Part shown: one piece after another, positions 2,775 through 30,578 of the stretch | How positions within the stretch are numbered: the stretch's first letter is position 1 | Layout of the letters: every line of letters starts with the position of its first letter | Translations under genes and position numbers: made by a program | The notes under the pieces: generated by a model | The model's database searches: none | Told to the model about the DNA's origin: nothing | Seen by the model: the letters and a program-made list of their open reading frames with translations, nothing else | DNA from: an uncultured Clostridia bacterium | GTDB lineage: Bacteria > Bacillota > Clostridia > TANB77 > CAG-508 | Assembly: GCA_947624735.1 (NCBI GenBank) | Contig: CANQLM010000002.1 | Span: 1-40,085 of the forward strand | Direction: 5' to 3' | Length of the DNA: 40,085 nt

Positions 2775-5700
2775 ATGAAATTACAGAATTTAGCTGTTAT
2801 TTTTATAGTAATTATAATGCCAATAGCATTAGTATTATCAATATATACAGGAAATTTAATAGATGTTGCAAATAAGCAAGCAGAATATGATTCACTTTTG
2901 CTTAATTCAACTTATGATGCAGTAAGAGCTTATCAAATGAATACATTAAACAATAGTTATGAAGCAGAAACAAATTCGAAGATAAGGGATATTAATGCAT
3001 CTGTTAACTCATTCTTTAATAGTTTAGCTGCAGGGCTTTCACAAAGTGGATTTGGAAAAGCTCAATTAACAGATTATGTTCCAGCAATGTTATATACATT
3101 ATATGATGGATACTATGTTTATGGAGTTTTTGACAATGTAGTTAATATTGATAAAGGTATTAAATATGATGAAAATAATAAAATAACAAAAGAACAATAT
3201 GGATTAAAACCATATATATATTATTCATGTGAATACGCATCGAATAATTATGATTTAATAGTAAATTATACTTTAGATAACTATATAACAGTATCAGGAA
3301 CATATAAAGATGAAACTGGAAAATGGATAAATATTGCACAATCAGGATACTTCATAAACTATAATAATGTAACAGTACCAGTAAATGGAGATGGACCAGC
3401 AGACTTTGCTAATAAGCAAGTAACATTATATAAAGGAAAAAGCAATGAAGTAGTAATAAAGCCAGAAAGACTAGGAGAAACAATTATTGCTTATGATCAA
3501 AAATTAACAAGAGATAATATAAATAACTATGATTATAAAGCAGTTCTTGATGAAAATGGAAAGGCAAAATATTTCAATTATATTATATATAATAATATAA
3601 AATATTATTTAGATACAGATATTATTCAAAATGGTTCACCAATAGAAGTAACTAGAGATGGAGTCAATAACACTAGTTTTAATATGACTTATGATGGAAT
3701 ACCAATATTCTTCTTAGATGGAAATGAGAGAACATATATAAGTAGAAGTACATTTGATGAACTTAAATCATTTCTAGGAGTTGGAAATGATAGTGATATG
3801 TATAGTAGCATTGAAGGAGAAGGTTGTTACAGAGATGTAAATGCATATTATTATTATTATAGGTCAGTTAAATTTAGTAGAAGTGTTGAACCTGCATTAA
3901 AGCAAATAGATTTAGGAGAGACCAAAATTACAGATGAATTAGGTAATAATATATCAGTTATAGCATCAAATATTCCATATGATGAGAATGGAAATTTAAA
4001 TAGTAAAAACGTTATAAAAACTGAATCATATCATATAAAATATACCAATGAAAAAGGGGTAGAAAGTCATACAAAAACAACATATGATAATTCTAAAATA
4101 TTTGATTTAGAAGATACATCTAATGATCCAGAACTAGAGTCATCATCATTTAACTTACATAGAGTTGATGTAATTATAAGTTCAATAGAATCAAGTTTAA
4201 TTACTACAATAGCAAACTTTAATAGCCATATGGGAGCAACATATGATTATGCTATGCCAACTCTTACAGAAGAAGAATGGGATAGAATATGTAATAACAT
4301 AACAGTAATTTCATTTATGCAAGGACTTACAATAGGAAATTATAAATACTATAGTAGTTATGCTATTGTTGCAAATACTAAAGTAAAAGACTATATAAAT
4401 AAAAATACAATTTATGTTCAAGAAGATAATAATGAAGATAGTAATTTAGAATATCATAATCCTAGATGTGAAGAATTTAATGAAGAATTTAATTCAAATG
4501 AGGATAAAAGAGCAATCGGATATAAAAGTTTAGACTATGATAGACAAGGAGCAGTTGTACCTTCTGCAGAAGGTAGTGGAGGACAACAATATTATTTTTA
4601 TTTACAGCAAAAAACTGGAGGATATGAATGTATAGTAAGCCTTAATGGCAATAGTTATAGCACAGATGAATTACTAAGTGGAAAAAAAGTTCAGCAAACA
4701 ACTCAAAAAGAGGTAAATAATGAAATAAGAAGAGCATATATAACAGCATTAGCAAGAGAAAAGGGCAGTTCATATAAAACATATGGATTTTTAAATGAAA
4801 GCCTTCAAGTAAAAACAACAGCATCTGCTGGAGAAGCAGTGTATACAGTACATTATTATTATCAAGACTATAACTATGAAACTAATACACCACTATCTAC
4901 ATATTCAGAATTAAATAATACATATACATCAACAGCATTAATAGGAACTAATATAGCAAGACTTAATATGAATACAACTCCTAATACAGGTTATACATGG
5001 GATAATCAGATAAGAGTATATAACCAAGACACAGAAAAATATGACTATTTAAATAATGGCAATAATACATTACAAGCTAATAAAGCTACAGACATAGGAT
5101 TGTATTTTAATGTAAATTTAAATAATAAAAAAGATTTATATTATAATATAGAAACATATTTATGGAATAAAGATATAGTAAAATTTGATTTTATAAAAAC
5201 AGATACAATAACTGAACAAAAATGGATAAATGCAAATAATGAACTAGATGTAAATATACCAGAAATGTATCAAGGAATAAACTTGATATATACTAATCCA
5301 GCAGGCTATGAAGGTGTAACAAAGAAAATAGCAACAGGTTCAAATATACAAGCATATTACTCAGATGAAGCAGAATTTCTAAATAGAACATATACTGTAA
5401 GATATCATTCAAATAATGGAACAGGAACTATGGAAGAAAATACCTATAGATTTTTTGAAAGAAATTCATTAAGAATGAATCGATTTAGTATGGAGGGATT
5501 TGGATTTAAAGGATGGTCTTTAAACCCTGATGATAGTGAAATAAAATATAAAGATACAGAAGTAATTGTTTATTTAGATGATACAGATATGAAAGTAGAA
5601 AATGGTGAATATTATCTAGATTTATATGCACAATGGGAAAAATCTTCATATCAAATAAGTTACCAACCAAATGGAGCAACAGAAGGAGTAATGGAAAACT

Positions 5701-8090
5701 CAACCCACGAATATGGTGTTAGTTCAAAATTAAGAAAAAATGAATATAGAAAAATATATAATATAAAAATAAATATAGGACCAGCTAATACAAACTTTTA
5801 TACAGGAAATTTTGGAGTATGGGGCGATGCTACAACAAAACTTACATATGACCAATCTAGTAACGAATATACACTTGAATTTCCTAATAATTCAGCTAGA
5901 TATACAGGAATGTATTACACAGATAATAATGCAATAATAAAAGCAGGAAAAACAGCAACAATAAGTTATGAAATTTATCCTAATAGAGATGTAACAATAG
6001 CATTAAAATATCAAAATTCTATTGTAGGACAACCTATTAATCAGAATCAACAAAATTTAACTCCTGAATTAATAAAAATTCCTGCTAATCAGTGGAGTAC
6101 AGTATATTTTACATATACAAACAATAGTAACAATAATATTTATGATTATAGTATATTAGGTATTGAAGATACGAATAGTAGCTGTATATTAAAAATAAAA
6201 AATCCAAAAATAGAAATGACAAATGCACAAATGACACGTATAGATGAACAAACAATAATGGCAAAAATTGAAGGAAATTTCTTAAATTGGACATATAATA
6301 ATAAAACATACCAAGATGAAGAAGAAATATTAAATTTAACAACCCAAAATAATAGTTTATTAAATATGACAGCACAATGGGATAAAATGGAATTTTATTT
6401 ACCTGAATTAGTACCATCTGGATATGAATTTGTCGGATGGGTAGATAAGAATGGAAAAGAAGTTGATGAAGATAAACCAATAGATGTTACAGGAGACGAT
6501 GAATTTTCAGTAAAAATGGTAGATGAGGTGCCACCAGAAGTAAAATTAAATGTAATTAGTACAACAACAAGAACAATAACGGTAAGAGCAGAAGCAAACG
6601 ATATTGGTTCGGGAATGATTGATGCACCAAGATATATCTATTCTATAAAGAAATTAGGTGAACCAGATAGTTTATATAAAACATTTGAGGGAGGAGAACT
6701 GGCAGAATATACATTTAATAACTTAGATGAAGGAACATCATATAATTTAAAAGTAGAAGTAATATCTGATAGAGAGGAAAATAATGGTATAGCAACCAAT
6801 ATTGCAACAACAAGAAATTTAACAGGAAGTACAATAATAAAACGACAATTCTGGAATAAAAATGAAAATGATGAAGGAACAGCATATATAGAATTTGCAA
6901 TAAATCCTCCACAAGAAGGAGTGTACATAGAATATAGGCTTGGAATAAATGGTACTTGGACAAAGGGAGATACTATAAATGGAGTACATCATCAGGATAC
7001 AATATATACAAGATTGACAGATGGAGTAAATTATTTAAATAGTGCAAGTTTCTTAATATTAGACCAGATACAGCCAAGCTTAGATATAATAGATGTTACT
7101 GCGGTAGAAAATAGACCTAATAGTGTGGCAGTTAATGTTAATGCATATGATGGAGAAACTGGACTTGGAAAAGAACCTAAATATATATATTCAATCAAAA
7201 AGCAAAATGAACAAAATTATAGAGTAGTAACAGAAACAACAAGTAGAAGCTATAATTATACTGGATTAGAGCAAAATACTACTTATAATATAAAAGTTGG
7301 AATTAAAGATTTAGCAGGTAATTTAAAGGAAACAGTAATAACTGTTACTACAACATATACATATAAGATATTCTTCAACGGAAATGGTTCAACTAGTGGA
7401 AATATGACAGAGATGAATTGTATAAAAGATATAGCAGTTACATTAAATAAAAATGAATATCTAAGAAGTGGATATAAATGGTTATATTGGGAATATAATG
7501 GAAATACATATTTTGATATGCAACAAGTTATGAATTTATCAGAACATGGAGAAAATGTAACATTAAATGCGACTTGGAAGATTAATAGAGTATATATTGT
7601 ACAAAATGGAGTTCCTCAAGTTCGTTGGGAAATAGCTCAAATATCAGGATGTAATAGTGCTAGAATTGAATGGGCATCAGGTGGTCAGTATGGATTTTCA
7701 CATGTAGGACAAACTGCTGATGATGGATATGGTACAGGAAGAATAGATGTAATGGGATTAGTTACGTCTTCACCAGTTGATTTAACTGAATTTACAAAAG
7801 TAGTATTTGCTTTTTCAAGATGGGCAAGAGATGGTGGAGCAAATGGATATTATAGGACATGTGCAGGAATATATAGCAATAAAGTTGTTGGAGAAGGTGC
7901 TTATTCTTCATGGCAATCTCGACCTCCATCAATGATTGCAGGATGGTTATGTAATCAGATAGTAGCATCAACACAAACTTTACAAATTCCAGCAGGAGTA
8001 ACATCAGCATATATAGGAATGGCTTCTGGAGGAGGATGGTACGGTAATGGCTCTATAGCTGTAACTGATATTTACTTAACATCTGATTAA
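2775..8090 (+). CDS. giant (1771 aa) N-terminally anchored mosaic surface protein: unknown N-domain, Listeria-Bacteroides (Flg_new) repeats, CBM-like jelly-roll, two FN3-like domains and a Gly/Trp-rich C-terminal domain
   Basis: Single uninterrupted ORF. N-terminal hydrophobic helix LAVIFIVIIMPIALVLSIY. Flg_new-type repeats (YTVRYHSNNGTGTM...GFKGW...LYAQWEK at 5391-5642; YKIFFNGNGSTSGNM...LNATWKIN at 7356-7586). FN3-like units at about 6522-6821 and 7062-7355 share the pattern D.G(S/T)G...P(R/K)YIYSIKK...Y.(F/Y)..L...T.YN.KV. Confidence 0.85.
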   Translation: MKLQNLAVIFIVIIMPIALVLSIYTGNLIDVANKQAEYDSLLLNSTYDAVRAYQMNTLNNSYEAETNSKIRDINASVNSFFNSLAAGLSQSGFGKAQLTDYVPAMLYTLYDGYYVYGVFDNVVNIDKGIKYDENNKITKEQYGLKPYIYYSCEYASNNYDLIVNYTLDNYITVSGTYKDETGKWINIAQSGYFINYNNVTVPVNGDGPADFANKQVTLYKGKSNEVVIKPERLGETIIAYDQKLTRDNINNYDYKAVLDENGKAKYFNYIIYNNIKYYLDTDIIQNGSPIEVTRDGVNNTSFNMTYDGIPIFFLDGNERTYISRSTFDELKSFLGVGNDSDMYSSIEGEGCYRDVNAYYYYYRSVKFSRSVEPALKQIDLGETKITDELGNNISVIASNIPYDENGNLNSKNVIKTESYHIKYTNEKGVESHTKTTYDNSKIFDLEDTSNDPELESSSFNLHRVDVIISSIESSLITTIANFNSHMGATYDYAMPTLTEEEWDRICNNITVISFMQGLTIGNYKYYSSYAIVANTKVKDYINKNTIYVQEDNNEDSNLEYHNPRCEEFNEEFNSNEDKRAIGYKSLDYDRQGAVVPSAEGSGGQQYYFYLQQKTGGYECIVSLNGNSYSTDELLSGKKVQQTTQKEVNNEIRRAYITALAREKGSSYKTYGFLNESLQVKTTASAGEAVYTVHYYYQDYNYETNTPLSTYSELNNTYTSTALIGTNIARLNMNTTPNTGYTWDNQIRVYNQDTEKYDYLNNGNNTLQANKATDIGLYFNVNLNNKKDLYYNIETYLWNKDIVKFDFIKTDTITEQKWINANNELDVNIPEMYQGINLIYTNPAGYEGVTKKIATGSNIQAYYSDEAEFLNRTYTVRYHSNNGTGTMEENTYRFFERNSLRMNRFSMEGFGFKGWSLNPDDSEIKYKDTEVIVYLDDTDMKVENGEYYLDLYAQWEKSSYQISYQPNGATEGVMENSTHEYGVSSKLRKNEYRKIYNIKINIGPANTNFYTGNFGVWGDATTKLTYDQSSNEYTLEFPNNSARYTGMYYTDNNAIIKAGKTATISYEIYPNRDVTIALKYQNSIVGQPINQNQQNLTPELIKIPANQWSTVYFTYTNNSNNNIYDYSILGIEDTNSSCILKIKNPKIEMTNAQMTRIDEQTIMAKIEGNFLNWTYNNKTYQDEEEILNLTTQNNSLLNMTAQWDKMEFYLPELVPSGYEFVGWVDKNGKEVDEDKPIDVTGDDEFSVKMVDEVPPEVKLNVISTTTRTITVRAEANDIGSGMIDAPRYIYSIKKLGEPDSLYKTFEGGELAEYTFNNLDEGTSYNLKVEVISDREENNGIATNIATTRNLTGSTIIKRQFWNKNENDEGTAYIEFAINPPQEGVYIEYRLGINGTWTKGDTINGVHHQDTIYTRLTDGVNYLNSASFLILDQIQPSLDIIDVTAVENRPNSVAVNVNAYDGETGLGKEPKYIYSIKKQNEQNYRVVTETTSRSYNYTGLEQNTTYNIKVGIKDLAGNLKETVITVTTTYTYKIFFNGNGSTSGNMTEMNCIKDIAVTLNKNEYLRSGYKWLYWEYNGNTYFDMQQVMNLSEHGENVTLNATWKINRVYIVQNGVPQVRWEIAQISGCNSARIEWASGGQYGFSHVGQTADDGYGTGRIDVMGLVTSSPVDLTEFTKVVFAFSRWARDGGANGYYRTCAGIYSNKVVGEGAYSSWQSRPPSMIAGWLCNQIVASTQTLQIPAGVTSAYIGMASGGGWYGNGSIAVTDIYLTSD

Positions 8091-15019: not shown

Positions 15020-16069
15020 ATGGAAAATAAAATAGAAGATGAAAAAATAAGTATAGAAGATATAAAACCAGATAAATCTCTTAGAATACTTACAGGAGAT
15101 AGACCAACTGGAAAACTTCATATAGGACACTATTTTGGTTCATTAAAATCAAGAGTAGAACTTCAAGATAAATTTGAAACCTTTATTGAAGTTGCAGATG
15201 TTCAAGCCCTAACAGATAATTTTAATAATCCAGATAAAGTAAAACAAAATGTTTCGCAAATTGTAATGGACTATTTATCAGTAGGAATGGATCCAAATAA
15301 GCTAACAATTTTTTTACAATCTCAAATACCAGAGATTGCAGAGCTTACAATATTTTATTCAAATTTAGTAACAATAGCTAGACTTCAAAGAAATCCTACT
15401 GTAAAAACAGAAATTGCACAGAAAAAAGAATTATTTGGAGAAAGTGTTACATATGGATTTCTAGGATACCCTGTAAGCCAAGCCGCAGATATAACTGCAT
15501 TTGATGCAAGTTATGTACCAGTTGGTGAAGACCAACTTCCATTAATTGAGCAATGTAGAGAAATAGTTAGAAAATTCAACTCAATATATGGAGAAACATT
15601 AAGAGAGCCAGTTGCAGTAATGAGTAATACAGGCAGAATAAAGGGACTAGATGGAAATGAAAAAATGGGTAAATCCTTAGGAAATGCTTTATACTTATCA
15701 GATGACTTGCAAACTATTACAGAAAAAGTAATGTCAGCCTTAACAGACCCAGCAAGAATAAAAAAAGATGATCCAGGAAATCCTAATATTTGTATGGTTT
15801 ACTATTACCATAAATTATTTAGTGACGAAGATACTTGTAAAAATGTATGCGAAGAATGTAAGGCTGGAAAAAGAGGTTGTGTTGCTTGTAAAAAACAACT
15901 AATAGAAAATATAAATAAAACTTTAGCACCAATTAGAGAAAAAAGACATTATTTTGAAGAAAGACCACAAGAAGTTATGGATATATTGATGAGCGGAACA
16001 TCTCATGCAAGAGAAATAGCAAAAGAAACAATGCAAAAAGTAAAAGAGGCAATGAAATTGAACTACTAG
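15020..16069 (+). CDS. trpS: tryptophanyl-tRNA synthetase with a Cys-rich C-terminal insert
   Basis: TGDRPTGKLHIGHYFG (HIGH) and KMGKSLGN (KMSKS). Six Cys between codons at 15791 and 15889. Confidence 0.93.
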   Translation: MENKIEDEKISIEDIKPDKSLRILTGDRPTGKLHIGHYFGSLKSRVELQDKFETFIEVADVQALTDNFNNPDKVKQNVSQIVMDYLSVGMDPNKLTIFLQSQIPEIAELTIFYSNLVTIARLQRNPTVKTEIAQKKELFGESVTYGFLGYPVSQAADITAFDASYVPVGEDQLPLIEQCREIVRKFNSIYGETLREPVAVMSNTGRIKGLDGNEKMGKSLGNALYLSDDLQTITEKVMSALTDPARIKKDDPGNPNICMVYYYHKLFSDEDTCKNVCEECKAGKRGCVACKKQLIENINKTLAPIREKRHYFEERPQEVMDILMSGTSHAREIAKETMQKVKEAMKLNY

Positions 16070-28715: not shown

Positions 28716-29594
28716 GTGGAAAAAAGTAAGGATAGATTAGCTGTAATTGAAAATATTAAAAAGAATATAAGCGAAAATAAGCTTAACTCTAAAGTTGAAA
28801 TTGGAGATCCAGAAATTACAGAAGATTTTTTCAAAAAGCGTGTACAAAATTATGATATTTTTAAAAGAAATCCAATAAACAAAATTAAAAATATTATAAC
28901 TAGAAAAATTGTAGATAATTATGTAGAAATGTTTAATAGTGATACAGAAATAGTCGGACTAGAAAATCTTGAAAAAGTAGACACAGGAGCAATTATAACA
29001 TCTAATCATTTTAGCCCACAAGATAGTACACCAATTACTTATGCAATAAAAAAAATAAATAAGTATAATAAATTAAACATTGTAATTACTGAAACAAACT
29101 TAGCAATGGAAGGACATCTAGGTTTTATAATGAACAACTTTAATATGATTCCATTAAGTATAAATAAAGAATACACAGAAAAAAAATTCATGCCAGCAAT
29201 ACAAAAATTATTAAAAAGAAAACATTTAATTTTAATTTATCCGGAGCAAGAAATGTGGTTTAATTACAGAAAAGTAAGAAACTTAAAACCGGGAGCATAT
29301 CACATAGCTGCTAAATATAAAGTTCCAATAATTCCTTGCTTTATAGAAATGCAGGAAAAAGATGGACAATATGAAGATAATGGATTTAATAAATTAAAAT
29401 ATACATTACATATAATGCCTCCAATATTTCCGGACGAACATAAATCTTTAAAAGAAAATAAAGATTTTATGAGACAAAAAGATTATGAACTAAAAAAAGA
29501 TGCTTATGAAAAAGCTTATGGAAAAGAACTTACATATGATTTCACAGATGAAGATATTGCGGGATTTGTAGAAAAGGAAAAAGTTAAAGTATAA
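28716..29594 (+). CDS. lysophospholipid (PlsC/LPLAT-family) acyltransferase 2
   Basis: SD AGGAG at 28704-28708 before GTG 28716. SNHFSPQD (HX4D) and IYPEQEMW (block III-like). Confidence 0.78.
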   Translation: MEKSKDRLAVIENIKKNISENKLNSKVEIGDPEITEDFFKKRVQNYDIFKRNPINKIKNIITRKIVDNYVEMFNSDTEIVGLENLEKVDTGAIITSNHFSPQDSTPITYAIKKINKYNKLNIVITETNLAMEGHLGFIMNNFNMIPLSINKEYTEKKFMPAIQKLLKRKHLILIYPEQEMWFNYRKVRNLKPGAYHIAAKYKVPIIPCFIEMQEKDGQYEDNGFNKLKYTLHIMPPIFPDEHKSLKENKDFMRQKDYELKKDAYEKAYGKELTYDFTDEDIAGFVEKEKVKV

Positions 29595-29608
29595 GTTTTT
29601 ATAAATTA

Positions 29609-29786
29609 AACAATAAAAAAATATTGTAAATTCGGCAGTGGCGCGTAGCGACCAAGCGAAGCGCGAATTAAGCTGTTGTCGAAAACTTGTTTTCGCAACA
29701 ACAGCTATATGCGTTAGCTGGAACGAGCAATTGTAAAATTGCGAAGTGACAACAAGCCACAGAGAATTACAATATTTTTTATTGTT
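29609..29786. other. GC-rich intergenic element bracketed by an inverted repeat (candidate structured RNA, MITE-like insertion or elaborated terminator)
   Basis: Arms AACAATAAAAAAATATTGTAAATTC (29609-33) and GAATTACAATATTTTTTATTGTT (29764-86). The core is about 48% G+C (hand count 64/132). Nested helices at 29636-42/29756-62, 29671-29706 and 29727-42. No ORF. Strand undetermined. Confidence 0.5.
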
Positions 29787-29803
29787 AAGAATAAAAAGTT
29801 TCC

Positions 29804-29858
29804 CAAACAAAAATTTTTCAAACTTTTGTTTGACAAACTTTTATTTTTATGTTATATT
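29804..29858 (+). promoter_or_regulatory. lexA promoter with a phased CAAAC array and a palindromic candidate SOS box
   Basis: TTGACA (29830-35), 17-nt spacer, TATATT (29853-58). CAAAC at 29804, 29819 and 29834 (15-nt phasing). Palindrome CAAAC-TTTT-GTTTG (29819-29832) overlaps the -35 element. Confidence 0.55.
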
Positions 29859-29900
29859 GTTATTGGAAAATTTTAAGAGATGGCAAAGGAGGAAATATTA

Positions 29901-30578
29901 ATGAATAAATCAAGAAGAGATGAAAATGGATTAAACAAGAGGGAAAGGGCAATATTAAAATACATTGAAAAGGAGATTATACTTAAAGGATATGCCCCAT
30001 CAGTTAGAGAAATATGTAAAGTTGTAGGACTTAATTCTACTGCAACAGTGCAAGGATATTTAAAAACACTTGAAGAAAGAGGATTTATTAAAAAAGAAAG
30101 TAAAAAAGGAAGAACTCTAAGACTTCTTAAAAATGCTAAAGGTGCTGAAGTAATTACAGACAGAGATGGAATAGCATCTACAAAACAATTCTATTCTAAT
30201 AAAGAAATGATTAATGTACCAGTTATCGGAAAAATAACAGCTGGCCAACCAATCCTAGCAATAGAAAATATAACAGATACATTTCCTATTCCACTAGACT
30301 TTGTTGGTAATTCAGAATGCTTTATGCTTACAGTTAGAGGCGAAAGCATGATTGAAGCAGGTATTTTTGATGGAGACTATATTTTAGTAAAAAGACAAAA
30401 TACTGCAGAAAACGGAACAATTGTAGTAGCACTTATTGATGATGAAGCAACAGTAAAAACATTTTACAAAGAAAAAGACCATATTAGATTACAACCAGAA
30501 AACAGTACAATGGATCCTATCATAGTACCTGACTGTAAAATACTTGGAAAAGTTGGTGGAGTATTTAGAAAAATATAA
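29901..30578 (+). CDS. lexA: LexA repressor (S24 autopeptidase)
   Basis: wHTH ([13 protein letters not shown]...GYAPSVREI), Ala-Gly cleavage site (KITAGQPI), Ser (RGESM) and Lys (TVKTF) dyad. SD AAGGAGG at 29886-92, 8 nt before ATG 29901. The tracked ATG 29880 lies upstream of the SD. Confidence 0.93.

Follow-up and report, generated by a model that had tools for sequence, protein, structure and literature searches.

Correia elements (CREE), MITEs of Neisseria, are about 100-200 bp long, have no ORF, end in inverted repeats of about 26 bp and are dispersed in intergenic DNA near genes; their transcripts form long hairpins, RNase III cleaves at the inverted repeats, and promoter-like hexamers lie at their ends (PMC10969869). 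The family that we describe here resembles them in size, in the lack of an ORF, in its terminal inverted repeats and in its intergenic dispersal, and a promoter-like match, not above the shuffle background, recurs at its 3′ end. Correia elements are present in more than 100 copies per genome, have conserved repeats around a variable interior and duplicate TA, whereas the present family has few copies and a conserved G+C-rich three-way junction as its interior in a 27% G+C genome; its sole measurable duplication is about 9 bp, and no sequence similarity between the two was found. The pneumococcal SPRITE, BOX and RUP are likewise small, non-coding, structured repeats of Firmicutes, of which SPRITE is terminator-like and BOX is modular, with optional internal modules that can be compared with the short and long forms of the present family (PMC10969869). 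All three differ from it in sequence and in host and are far more numerous. None of them is known to have a near-invariant hairpin that is common to another phylum.

REP/REPIN sequences, mobilised by RAYT, are also extragenic palindromes; they are enriched in convergent gaps and at the 3′ ends of genes, and have GTAG beside a hairpin. REPINs form symmetric doublets, reach hundreds of copies and are tied to a RAYT gene, whereas the present family has an asymmetric core, few copies and a probable target duplication, and no RAYT was seen. Retron msr/msd RNAs likewise have inverted repeats on both flanks and two kinds of hairpin between them, one conserved at the 5′ side and one long and variable; the present family differs from them in its multiple dispersed copies, the absence of an adjacent reverse transcriptase and the absence of an Rfam match. 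The “mobile/repeat sequence candidates” from the Breaker laboratory's screens of GC-rich intergenic regions are structured motifs with several copies per genome and an inconsistent orientation with respect to their neighbours (PMC11109978). The present element fits this definition, and a G+C-rich intergenic criterion would detect it, but such candidates are usually backed by association with a transposase or integrase, and none was seen for this element.

The element upstream of lexA

Within the window, by which we mean the whole stretch of 40,085 nucleotides analysed, positions 29609-29786 hold AT-rich inverted repeats of about 25 bp that enclose a core of 48.5% G+C (64/132, 29633-29764), the G+C maximum among all 130-nt stretches (mean 27.6%, sd 4.9). 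We favour, with moderate confidence, the reading that this feature is one copy of a previously unannotated, MITE-type family of small non-coding insertions in AT-rich uncultured gut Clostridia. The first-pass annotation had singled out the locus as a G+C-rich island bracketed by an imperfect inverted repeat and free of ORFs, and this description stands: re-read against the sequence, all of its coordinates and strings are exact, the repeat has a 14-nt perfect core (29616-29/29767-80) within arms of 23-25 nt, and no ORF is credible, the one frame across the element (106 aa, TTG start) being spurious. The inverted repeat extends outward with a 78% match (29598-29620/29775-29797), and the size of the window copy is about 180-190 bp. 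No second copy was found within the window by BLAST or by the covariance model described below, with filters off.

Read on the forward strand, the element opens with its left terminal inverted repeat (29609-29633; AACAATAAAAAAATATTGTAAATTC, with an A7 run), the 5′ arm of an outer AT-rich stem, P0, that pairs with 29764-29786. The 5′ strand of P1, CAGTGGC (29636-29642), pairs with GCCACAG (29756-29762) and is followed by the hairpin P2 (29643-29664; GCGTAGCGACCAAGCGAAGCGC, GCGU-AG-CG[ACCAAG]CG-AA-GCGC), the signature of the family, identical in 9/10 Clostridia-type members, which is partly ascertainment as the search pattern lay inside P2. Next come a junction, GAAUUA (29665-29670), which reads GAAUGG in short-form members in the family alignment, and a 15-bp hairpin with a CUUG loop (29671-29706), an extra module found only in the long variant, represented by the window copy and the copy at the ffh-rpsP locus (L020). 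A linker conserved between these two copies (29707-29726; AUAUGCGUUAGCUGGAACGA) bears a UGGA...GA motif that, from the family alignment, we read as the equivalent of the short-form GAAUGGAGC, which directly follows P2. The hairpin GCAAUU[GUAA]AAUUGC (29727-29742), the equivalent of the variable P3 of short forms, is flanked by tandem G.A (CGAGC/GCGAAG). A 3′ conserved block (29743-29756; GAAGUGACAACAAG, family consensus GCGACAACAAG) leads into the 3′ strand of P1, and the right terminal inverted repeat, the 3′ arm of P0 (29764-29786; GAATTACAATATTTTTTATTGTT, with a T6 run), completes a terminator-like layout.

On the same strand, the upstream acyltransferase gene (28716-29594), the final gene of a TetR/acyltransferase/GT8/GT8/acyltransferase block, has its stop codon 5-14 nt before the element. 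Downstream lies the lexA operator/promoter (29802-29858), also on the forward strand and conserved in all relatives compared, where a palindrome, CAAAC-N4-GTTTG (29819-32), overlaps the -35 TTGACA (29830) and the -10 TATATT ends at 29858; the lexA ORF occupies 29901-30578. The boundary upstream of lexA is a synteny breakpoint across the clade. Relatives with LexA at 92-96% identity have other genes upstream, and in two related species different family members lie upstream of lexA in opposite orientations.

Dispersed copies and empty sites

A genome scan with a core 20-mer, a string for which about one chance match is expected in 596 Gb, recovered 8 Clostridia-type homologous copies in 6 MAGs. 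Counted as exact 20-mer matches in MAGs only, the copy number is 1-3 per MAG, with three in CALYAE01 and two in CANPZY01. A covariance model (R1) recovers all 8 of these, scores the window copy at 76.5 bits (E 3e-12) and adds a tenth on the minus strand upstream of lexA in a relative (L008:2174-2369; 54 bits, E 8e-8). These ten members, to which all family analyses refer, come from eight genome bins or assemblies and each occupy a different, unrelated locus.

Members are 108-196 nt long, the short forms (108-122 nt) being those without the extra 15-bp hairpin module, and they follow a common plan in which an A-run, an AT stem, a short P1 and the 22-nt hairpin GCGUAGCGACCAAGCGAAGCGC make up the 5′ half, and a variable hairpin, GCGACAACAAG, P1′, an AT stem and a T-run make up the 3′ half. 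The core fold is a three-way junction of the closing helix P1, the near-invariant 22-nt P2 and the variable P3. Across the family the terminal inverted repeats are AT-rich and 18-30 bp long, and in all ten members the arms of 11-25 bp are 98% paired. As the repeats recur in copies from separate genomes and loci, they belong to the repeated unit; the alternative that the outer stem is palindromic target DNA was rejected on the same ground. The non-palindromic core appears better conserved than the terminal repeats, unlike in a typical MITE, although a core-based search accounts for part of this. An outward promoter-like match, GCGACA-N16-18-TATAAT, recurs at the 3′ end of family members; promoter-like matches in the family are not above the shuffle background in such AT-rich DNA.

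The element is a discrete unit that occurs at unrelated housekeeping loci in either orientation and is absent from orthologous sites. Its neighbours include pknB-like, rpe, bactofilin, pth, MucBP, ffh|rpsP, clpC-like, spoIIIAE|AF, SDR and PBP genes; of the ten copies, five have convergent neighbours, five have tandem ones (2 sense, 3 antisense) and none has divergent ones. At two convergent loci (L014 and L026) the element occupies nearly the entire spacer, leaving no space for a further terminator, and another copy (L023) lies within the spoIIIA operon, 33 nt from the next gene. The ffh-rpsP spacer measures 247 nt with the element (L020) and 55 nt without it on eight contigs of a close relative (L040-L047), whose flanks are 94-96% identical. 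A single GTTATTAAA in the empty site corresponds to ATTATTAAA and GTTATCAAT flanking the inserted copy, a duplication of about 9 bp in which the two 9-mers agree with each other at 6/9 positions. This probable target duplication, which is AT-rich, fits transposition by a staggered cut.

By analogy with that site, weak candidate duplications can be proposed for the window copy in TATAAATTA on its left (29600-29608, forward strand) and TAAGAATAA on its right (29786-29794, forward strand), the latter being the start of the ancestral DNA upstream of lexA; the two match at 6/9 positions only. Three relatives (L038, L010 and L037) keep the GT8-acyltransferase-lexA order and lack the element. In L038 the stop codon adjoins sequence equivalent to that after window position 29786, and rightward from 29786 the window aligns with the element-less relatives L038, L005 and L035. 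The window insertion boundaries rest on L038, as no near-identical empty site was found for this copy (the closest acyltransferase homologue is 79% identical).

Rfam searches agree with the first-pass impression that the element belongs to no recognised RNA family. Rfam 15, whose models cover riboswitches, ribozymes, 6S, SRP, 5S, tRNA-like, retron and RT-associated RNAs among others, gave no match at the gathering score across the whole window and nothing relevant at E<=10 on 29550-29900, and nothing on the elements in 8 member loci, on relatives' loci including L008, or on the Elusimicrobia repeats discussed below; weak Rfam matches to CRISPR-DR34 and Transposase-2 were dismissed as chance (E 4-5). 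In plasmids, phages and E. coli genomes, BLAST with the element or with a conserved 37-mer returned only chance-level matches inside coding genes, a metagenome scan returned only Elusimicrobia-type copies, and the core string occurred in no paper in a full-text search of the literature. Viral contigs scanned with several core patterns gave 0 matches, and a link to phages is therefore without any sign. By Pfam, which was applied to 29 of the larger window ORFs and the flanks of eight other copies and taken precomputed for the L008 flanks, neither the window nor the neighbourhood of any family member contains a transposase, reverse transcriptase or HUH gene, and no element with matching ends around an ORF was found. 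Several likenesses were considered and dropped: to 5S rRNA helix I/loop A (GUGGCG.UAGCGAAG) and to strings of the SRP Alu domain (no match to the 5S or SRP model of Rfam); to the R″/R′ boxes of integron attC (6/7 in the window, absent from other members); to T-box, hammerhead, twister, pistol and hatchet RNAs (no Rfam matches); and to a K-turn (tandem G.A loops without the 3-nt bulge).

Folding and compensatory change

As RNA of the forward strand the whole window element folds at -62 kcal/mol (z -6.8), compared with z -6.0 for RNA of the reverse strand and z -6.9 for the DNA fold, and 0/200 shuffles fold as well. The core alone gives z -3.0 on the forward and z -2.1 on the reverse strand, with fold energies of -44 kcal/mol sense against -37.7 kcal/mol antisense. 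Outside P2 the stems are nearly all Watson-Crick, while P2 contains a U.G pair that is possible on the sense strand only, and the CUUG and GUAA (GNRA) loops are likewise found on the sense strand.

In the alignment of the ten members 97% of cells are paired, compared with 80% in shuffles; 21/33 pairs have changed on both sides, 14/17 within P0 alone; slid controls give 37-52%. P1 occurs in the compensatory variants GTGGC/GCCAC, GCGCC/GGCGC, AGCC/GGCT, GTCC/GGAC and AAGCC/GGCTT, P3 differs in sequence and keeps its pairing in every member, and the long hairpin of L020 is the window hairpin with two compensatory pair changes. Copies within one genome also differ compensatorily, at 3 pairs between L023 and L027 and at 1 between L013 and L014. 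Judged from sequence comparison, the way in which P1 and P3 vary with their pairing preserved points to selection on a folded single strand, as do the U.G pair and the loops, which favour one strand.

The suggestion of the first-pass annotation that the island marks a structured non-coding RNA thus proves sound as to structure, which is real and conserved with covariation, but the evidence favours the alternative that it had offered, a MITE, in the unrelated loci, both orientations, 2-3 copies in some genomes and filled and empty sites. It had also proposed that many near-identical copies without compensatory change would mark a selfish repeat. Copies were found, but they are few and do carry compensatory changes, which leaves room for a functional RNA core.

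Explanations and wider significance

In this lineage the element landed after the stop codon of the acyltransferase gene and ahead of the lexA operator; as a MITE-type insertion it would be mobilised in trans by a transposase encoded elsewhere. Its structured core probably acts, on the folding model, as a terminator-like hairpin: in transcripts of the upstream operon the two repeats would pair into a stem of about 25 bp that closes the core and is followed by U6, and the resulting (bidirectional) terminator-like hairpin, likely a substrate of RNase III, would insulate the SOS-regulated lexA promoter from read-through. The conserved core may serve the element's own propagation, or may be an independent RNA module. 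The lack of a detected autonomous partner, the low copy number and the weak target duplication in the window count against the MITE reading. A simple scan called no canonical intrinsic terminator in 29300-30000, and set against terminator criteria the element has the T6 run, a stem that is AT-rich, not G+C-rich, and a “loop” of 130 nt instead of 3-8 nt. The L023 copy also counts against a terminator role, as strong termination within the spoIIIA operon would do harm. Were the MITE-type reading true, it would add a MITE-like family for the poorly studied uncultured gut Clostridia of 25-30% G+C and show how small elements remodel the regulatory boundary in front of lexA, the SOS repressor gene; it would also caution that G+C-rich islands in AT-rich genomes, a standard cue in riboswitch and ncRNA discovery, can be mobile repeats.

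A purely local origin, with neither mobility nor a family, either through growth of the loop of a resident bidirectional intrinsic terminator or as a terminator remnant, would account for the A7, AT-rich stem and T6 directly after a stop codon, and the ordinary terminators of relatives have the same style of A-run, stem and T-run. Homologous copies at ten unrelated loci, stem included, and empty orthologous sites contradict it, and we regard it as very improbable; the first-pass idea of a terminator with an insert in its loop was right about the architecture, but the stem belongs to what is repeated from locus to locus and is not a pre-existing local terminator. A retron-type msr/msd RNA with its reverse transcriptase encoded elsewhere, a likeness also raised in the first pass, would explain the flanking a1/a2 repeats, the UAGC near the 5′ stem, the conserved 5′ hairpin and the variable long one, yet seems to us scarcely credible: no Rfam retron or RT-associated RNA matches, dispersed multiple copies are not a retron trait, and the Pfam survey leaves the likeness unsupported. 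The element might instead work as folded single-stranded DNA, recognised by an HUH-type enzyme (REP/RAYT- or IS200/IS605-like) or serving as a priming or single-strand-origin-like signal. GC-GNA-GC heptamers form very stable DNA mini-hairpins, and the core holds two, GCGTAGC and GCGAAGC, as well as a GTAG beside a small hairpin, as in REPs, and a TAGCGA that resembles the CS-6 motif of ssoA; the DNA fold and the almost purely Watson-Crick stems would also suit such a role. These motifs are short, however, orientation shows no bias with respect to the prevailing direction of genes, taken as a stand-in for replication (2 vs 3 in a small sample of 5 tandem contexts), copy number is far under that of REP families, no HUH gene is nearby, and the probable duplication of about 9 bp at L020 fits insertion of the DDE type, not the HUH type, all of which makes a single-stranded DNA role improbable.

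Doubtful but of more substance is the reading that the core functions as a structured RNA, be it in protein binding, processing or catalysis, and that the AT-rich stem is a stalk at which an enzyme such as RNase III acts in processing. On this account, which stays unlikely, the stalk would free an RNA of about 80-130 nt from any read-through transcript, and the dispersed copies, far from being junk, would make up a small multigene family or represent a mobile RNA gene. Its attraction lies in the three-way junction with its near-invariant hairpin and conserved junction strands, in compensatory changes in P1, P3 and the extra hairpin, even between copies of one genome, in the sense-only pair and loops of a core that folds better as sense, and in the recurrence of the 22-nt hairpin, GAA(A)UGGAG and the following hairpin in an Elusimicrobia repeat. 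Orientation is random with respect to neighbouring transcription, with 3/5 tandem cases antisense, and the spoIIIA copy, 33 nt from the next gene, has no space for its own promoter; near-purely Watson-Crick stems outside P2 are expected of DNA-level inverted repeats or young hairpins. Against it, too, are the lack of any gene association or Rfam family, and relatives without the element at the same sites do well.

The conserved asymmetric core and the 22-nt hairpin shared with Elusimicrobia nonetheless make transposition alone insufficient as an explanation, and offer a concrete lead towards an RNA or single-strand DNA module of a new kind. As a bolder conjecture, which we advance only very tentatively, the core (P1, GCGUAGCGACCAAGCGAAGCGC, GAAUGGAG with its hairpin, and GCGACAACAAG) could be a new functional RNA class, a mobile structured RNA found across phyla instead of a passive MITE, perhaps a ribozyme that processes itself or a module that binds a universal host factor; a small mobile element would carry it, and as a module it would be common to the Elusimicrobia repeat and a proteobacterial locus. 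The P2 22-mer does occur in an Elusimicrobia repeat family of about 165 nt. The Elusimicrobia repeat always lies just upstream of gene starts and tRNAs.

The lexA-proximal element and its family

On the forward strand, the acyltransferase gene (stop codon at 29594) is followed by an AT-rich left arm (29609-29633), a 132-nt core (29633-29764), a complementary right arm (29764-29786) and the lexA operator/promoter, in which the -35 TTGACA is at 29830 and the -10 ends at 29858; the real lexA start is the ATG at 29901. Core G+C content is 48.5%, against a window mean of 27.6% (sd 4.9, 130-nt stretches), making the core the most G+C-rich 130 nt anywhere in the 40 kb. A repeat finder matches the arms perfectly over 14 nt, and at 78% when they are extended to 23 nt. 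Fold z-scores are -6.8 (RNA, + strand), -6.0 (RNA, - strand) and -6.9 (DNA) for the whole element, and -3.0 (+) and -2.1 (-) for the core. The first-pass annotation's description of a G+C-rich, folding element bracketed by inverted repeats before lexA thus agrees with coordinates, composition and fold statistics alike, well beyond chance; the third hairpin it drew (29727-29742) is also present, and corresponds to the variable hairpin P3 of the family. Four metagenome contigs from the same strain were identical over this region.

Comparison with Rfam, which that annotation had proposed, matched the element to no known family: Rfam 15 gave no match across the whole window at the gathering score, and nothing meaningful on the element itself at E ≤ 10. 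BLAST and covariance searches found no second copy within the 40 kb, the plasmid, phage and E. coli collections held nothing similar, and no database, Rfam family or paper among those searched describes the element. Scanning one genome per species (596 Gb) with the core 20-mer GCGTAGCGACCAAGCGAAGC recovered 15 loci, of which eight lie in six AT-rich 'uncultured Clostridia' MAGs (three copies in CALYAE01, two in CANPZY01, one each in CANRBH01, CANRLA01 and CAKOXK01) and seven in G+C-rich genomes (six Elusimicrobia MAG loci and one proteobacterial MAG). Among side observations, tyrS (920-2239) and trpS (15020-16069) are present in the window, yet Rfam calls no T-box leader anywhere in the window at the gathering score; such a lack beside aminoacyl-tRNA synthetase genes is unusual for a Firmicute. 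For a 1771-aa ORF (2775-8090), Pfam gives no domain at E ≤ 1e-5.

The Clostridia-type copies are all built alike: an A-run, an AT-rich outer stem P0 (11-25 bp), a short closing helix P1, the hairpin P2 (GCGU-AG-CG[ACCAAG]CG-AA-GCGC) and GAAU, then (U)GGA..GA-GC, P3, GC-GA-C, AACAAG, P1', P0' and a T-run. Short forms span 108-129 nt, while the long form (the window copy and L020, at an ffh-rpsP locus) adds a hairpin module of ~55 nt after GAAU (window 29671-29726). R1, a covariance model derived from six short forms, gives the window copy 76.5 bits (E 3e-12) and finds a diverged and enlarged tenth member, L008:2174-2369 on the minus strand (54 bits, E 8e-8), located between rpmA and the lexA promoter. 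L008 covers lexA in a relative (89% LexA identity), so two related species have different members of the family in front of lexA, pointing in opposite directions.

In an alignment fitted to the model and comprising only ten sequences, 97% of pair cells hold standard pairs, versus 80% when shuffled and 37-52% with slid partners, and both sides change at 21 of 33 pairs. P1 covaries (GTGGC/GCCAC, GCGCC/GGCGC, AGCC/GGCT, GTCC/GGAC, AAGCC/GGCTT), and P3 changes sequence with pairing kept even among copies within one genome (three pairs differ between L023 and L027, one between L013 and L014); the extra hairpin differs between the window and L020 by two compensatory pairs. Ascertainment accounts for part of the identity of P2 among members: the search pattern falls inside this hairpin.

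The matches outside Clostridia are mostly one ~165-nt repeat, present in Elusimicrobia MAGs and metagenome contigs (L016, L017, L018, L019, L022, L024, L028-L033), 80-90% identical between MAGs and also absent from Rfam; several copies occur per 15 kb, and L032 has at least two full ones in 15 kb. What it has in common with the Clostridia family is the 22-nt P2 sequence together with a GAA(A)UGGAG-plus-hairpin segment, and the remainder differs; R1 gains only a few bits beyond P2 at these loci. Since ~1.1 chance 20-mer matches are expected in 596 Gb (2 x 5.96e11 / 4^20), and more for a G+C-rich word, the connection depends on the 22-nt extension and the second shared segment, and is suggestive, short of proof. 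In eight of eight copies examined the repeat ends at most ~30 nt before a tRNA or a same-strand gene start, the downstream genes including rpoD, serA-like, accB-like, ssb and lipoprotein genes and two tRNAs. Its 3' end reads ...GGGGUGCGACAG, and a solitary terminal hairpin plus GCGACAG is also found after gene ends.

Occupied and empty sites

The ffh-rpsP spacer of L020 is 247 nt long with the element, whereas in a close relative (S16 97% identical) the spacer measures 55 nt and lacks it on eight contigs, with flanking coding DNA 94% and 96% identical. The empty site reads ...TAAAATAA ATTA GTTATTAAA TTTTTAAAC..., and the element's borders are ATTATTAAA (left) and GTTATCAAT (right), a direct AT-rich duplication of ~9 bp in which each copy agrees with the empty site at 7-8 of 9 positions. 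For the window copy, the GT8/acyltransferase/lexA order is kept without the element in L038 (LexA 90% identical), L010-L012 (84%) and L037 (92%), and in L038 the stop codon continues directly into sequence starting at window 29786; the window therefore holds an insertion of ~190 nt, whose candidate duplication (TATAAATTA / TAAGAATAA) agrees at only 6 of 9 positions. The insertion abuts the acyltransferase stop codon and might have altered the gene end. That protein ends in FVEKEKVKV after the conserved DIAG motif (29565-29594), and its homologues end variously soon after DIAG (LKA, LN or a 16-aa tail).

The inverted repeats are common to copies at different loci and in different genomes and so are part of the unit, not a pre-existing local terminator. 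Neighbouring genes are ordinary, unrelated housekeeping genes: PASTA kinase; rpe and bactofilin; pth and a MucBP surface protein; ffh and rpsP; a ClpC-like ATPase; spoIIIAE and spoIIIAF; SDR; and PBP. In the window they are an acyltransferase gene and lexA. With gene direction judged by the longest ORFs, convergent genes flank five of the ten copies, tandem genes the other five and divergent genes none. Relative to the flanking genes, the tandem cases comprise two sense and three antisense copies, a mixed orientation that makes a strand-specific cis-regulatory mRNA role unlikely. The element is a discrete, dispersed unit, occurs in both orientations, is missing from orthologous sites in relatives and has one measurable, though imperfect, target duplication.

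Probable mode of spread and possible roles for the core

A non-autonomous, MITE-like insertion element is the best-supported reading. By definition it falls among the 'mobile/repeat sequence candidates' of G+C-rich-intergenic screens (PMC11109978), and it behaves similarly to Correia, SPRITE and BOX elements, from which it differs in its low copy number, conserved structured core, ~9-bp duplication and possible cross-phylum module. No reverse transcriptase, transposase or integrase was found among the 29 larger window ORFs scanned or adjoining any copy (L008 flanks being assessed via precomputed Pfam), and mobilisation would be by a transposase encoded elsewhere. In read-through RNA, A7-stem...stem-U6 would form a terminator-like hairpin and a probable RNase III substrate; in the window, this would protect the LexA-controlled promoter from the operon before it. 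There are precedents in Correia MITEs, whose repeats are cut by RNase III, and in SPRITE, a repeat resembling a terminator (PMC10969869). The A-run/AT-rich stem/T-run style is also that of ordinary terminators in these genomes. Two observations speak against strong termination: a simple scan calls no canonical terminator at the element, and the L023 copy lies inside the spoIIIA operon. At L014 and L026 the element makes up nearly the whole spacer between convergent stop codons, and must there either supply termination for both genes or be compatible with it. The 3' ends of members repeatedly show a promoter-like GCGACA-N16-18-TATAAT, no more often than background in DNA this AT-rich.

The MITE-like reading leaves the core unexplained, as a plain MITE has no need of a G+C-rich three-way junction that is conserved and asymmetric. 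Selection acting on one folded strand is indicated by several features: compensatory changes in core stems, a strand-specific U.G pair, CUUG and GNRA loops on the sense strand, and a sense core that folds better than the antisense. A functional RNA, carried by the element or excised from it, consequently retains appreciable weight, although we consider it unlikely; apart from the U.G pair conserved in P2, the stems consist almost entirely of Watson-Crick pairs, the pattern expected of inverted repeats preserved as DNA. Were the core a functional RNA shared across phyla, its significance would be clearly higher. A possible role as single-stranded DNA, suggested by a GTAG plus hairpin, GC-GNA-GC mini-hairpins and a CS-6-like TAGCGA, is disfavoured by the target duplication and the absence of orientation bias.

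The lexA 5' boundary

Among close relatives (L005-L012, L034-L039) the gene upstream of lexA varies (acyltransferase, AAA ATPase, DUF362, DUF4363, rpmA, an unknown 122-aa ORF or, in L034, an unidentified truncated ORF), and a 160-163-aa ORF downstream is conserved in all except L034; this makes the lexA 5' boundary, where the elements sit, a synteny breakpoint in the clade. The operator is conserved in the window (29802-29832) and these relatives as a palindrome, CAAAC-N4-GTTTG, overlapping the -35 TTGACA and preceded by (C/G)C(C/G/A)AAC-AAAAATTTTT-C. Its sequence suggests that this clade has AAAC-N4-GTTT as its SOS box in place of the usual Firmicute GAAC-N4-GTTC. In L037 (1970-2500), ~100 bp of the operator/promoter is duplicated, the copies flanking a ~380-nt AT-rich insert with inverted ends of its own (TTTAACAG... 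/ ...CTGTTAAA), which may reflect a further type of insertion or faulty assembly.
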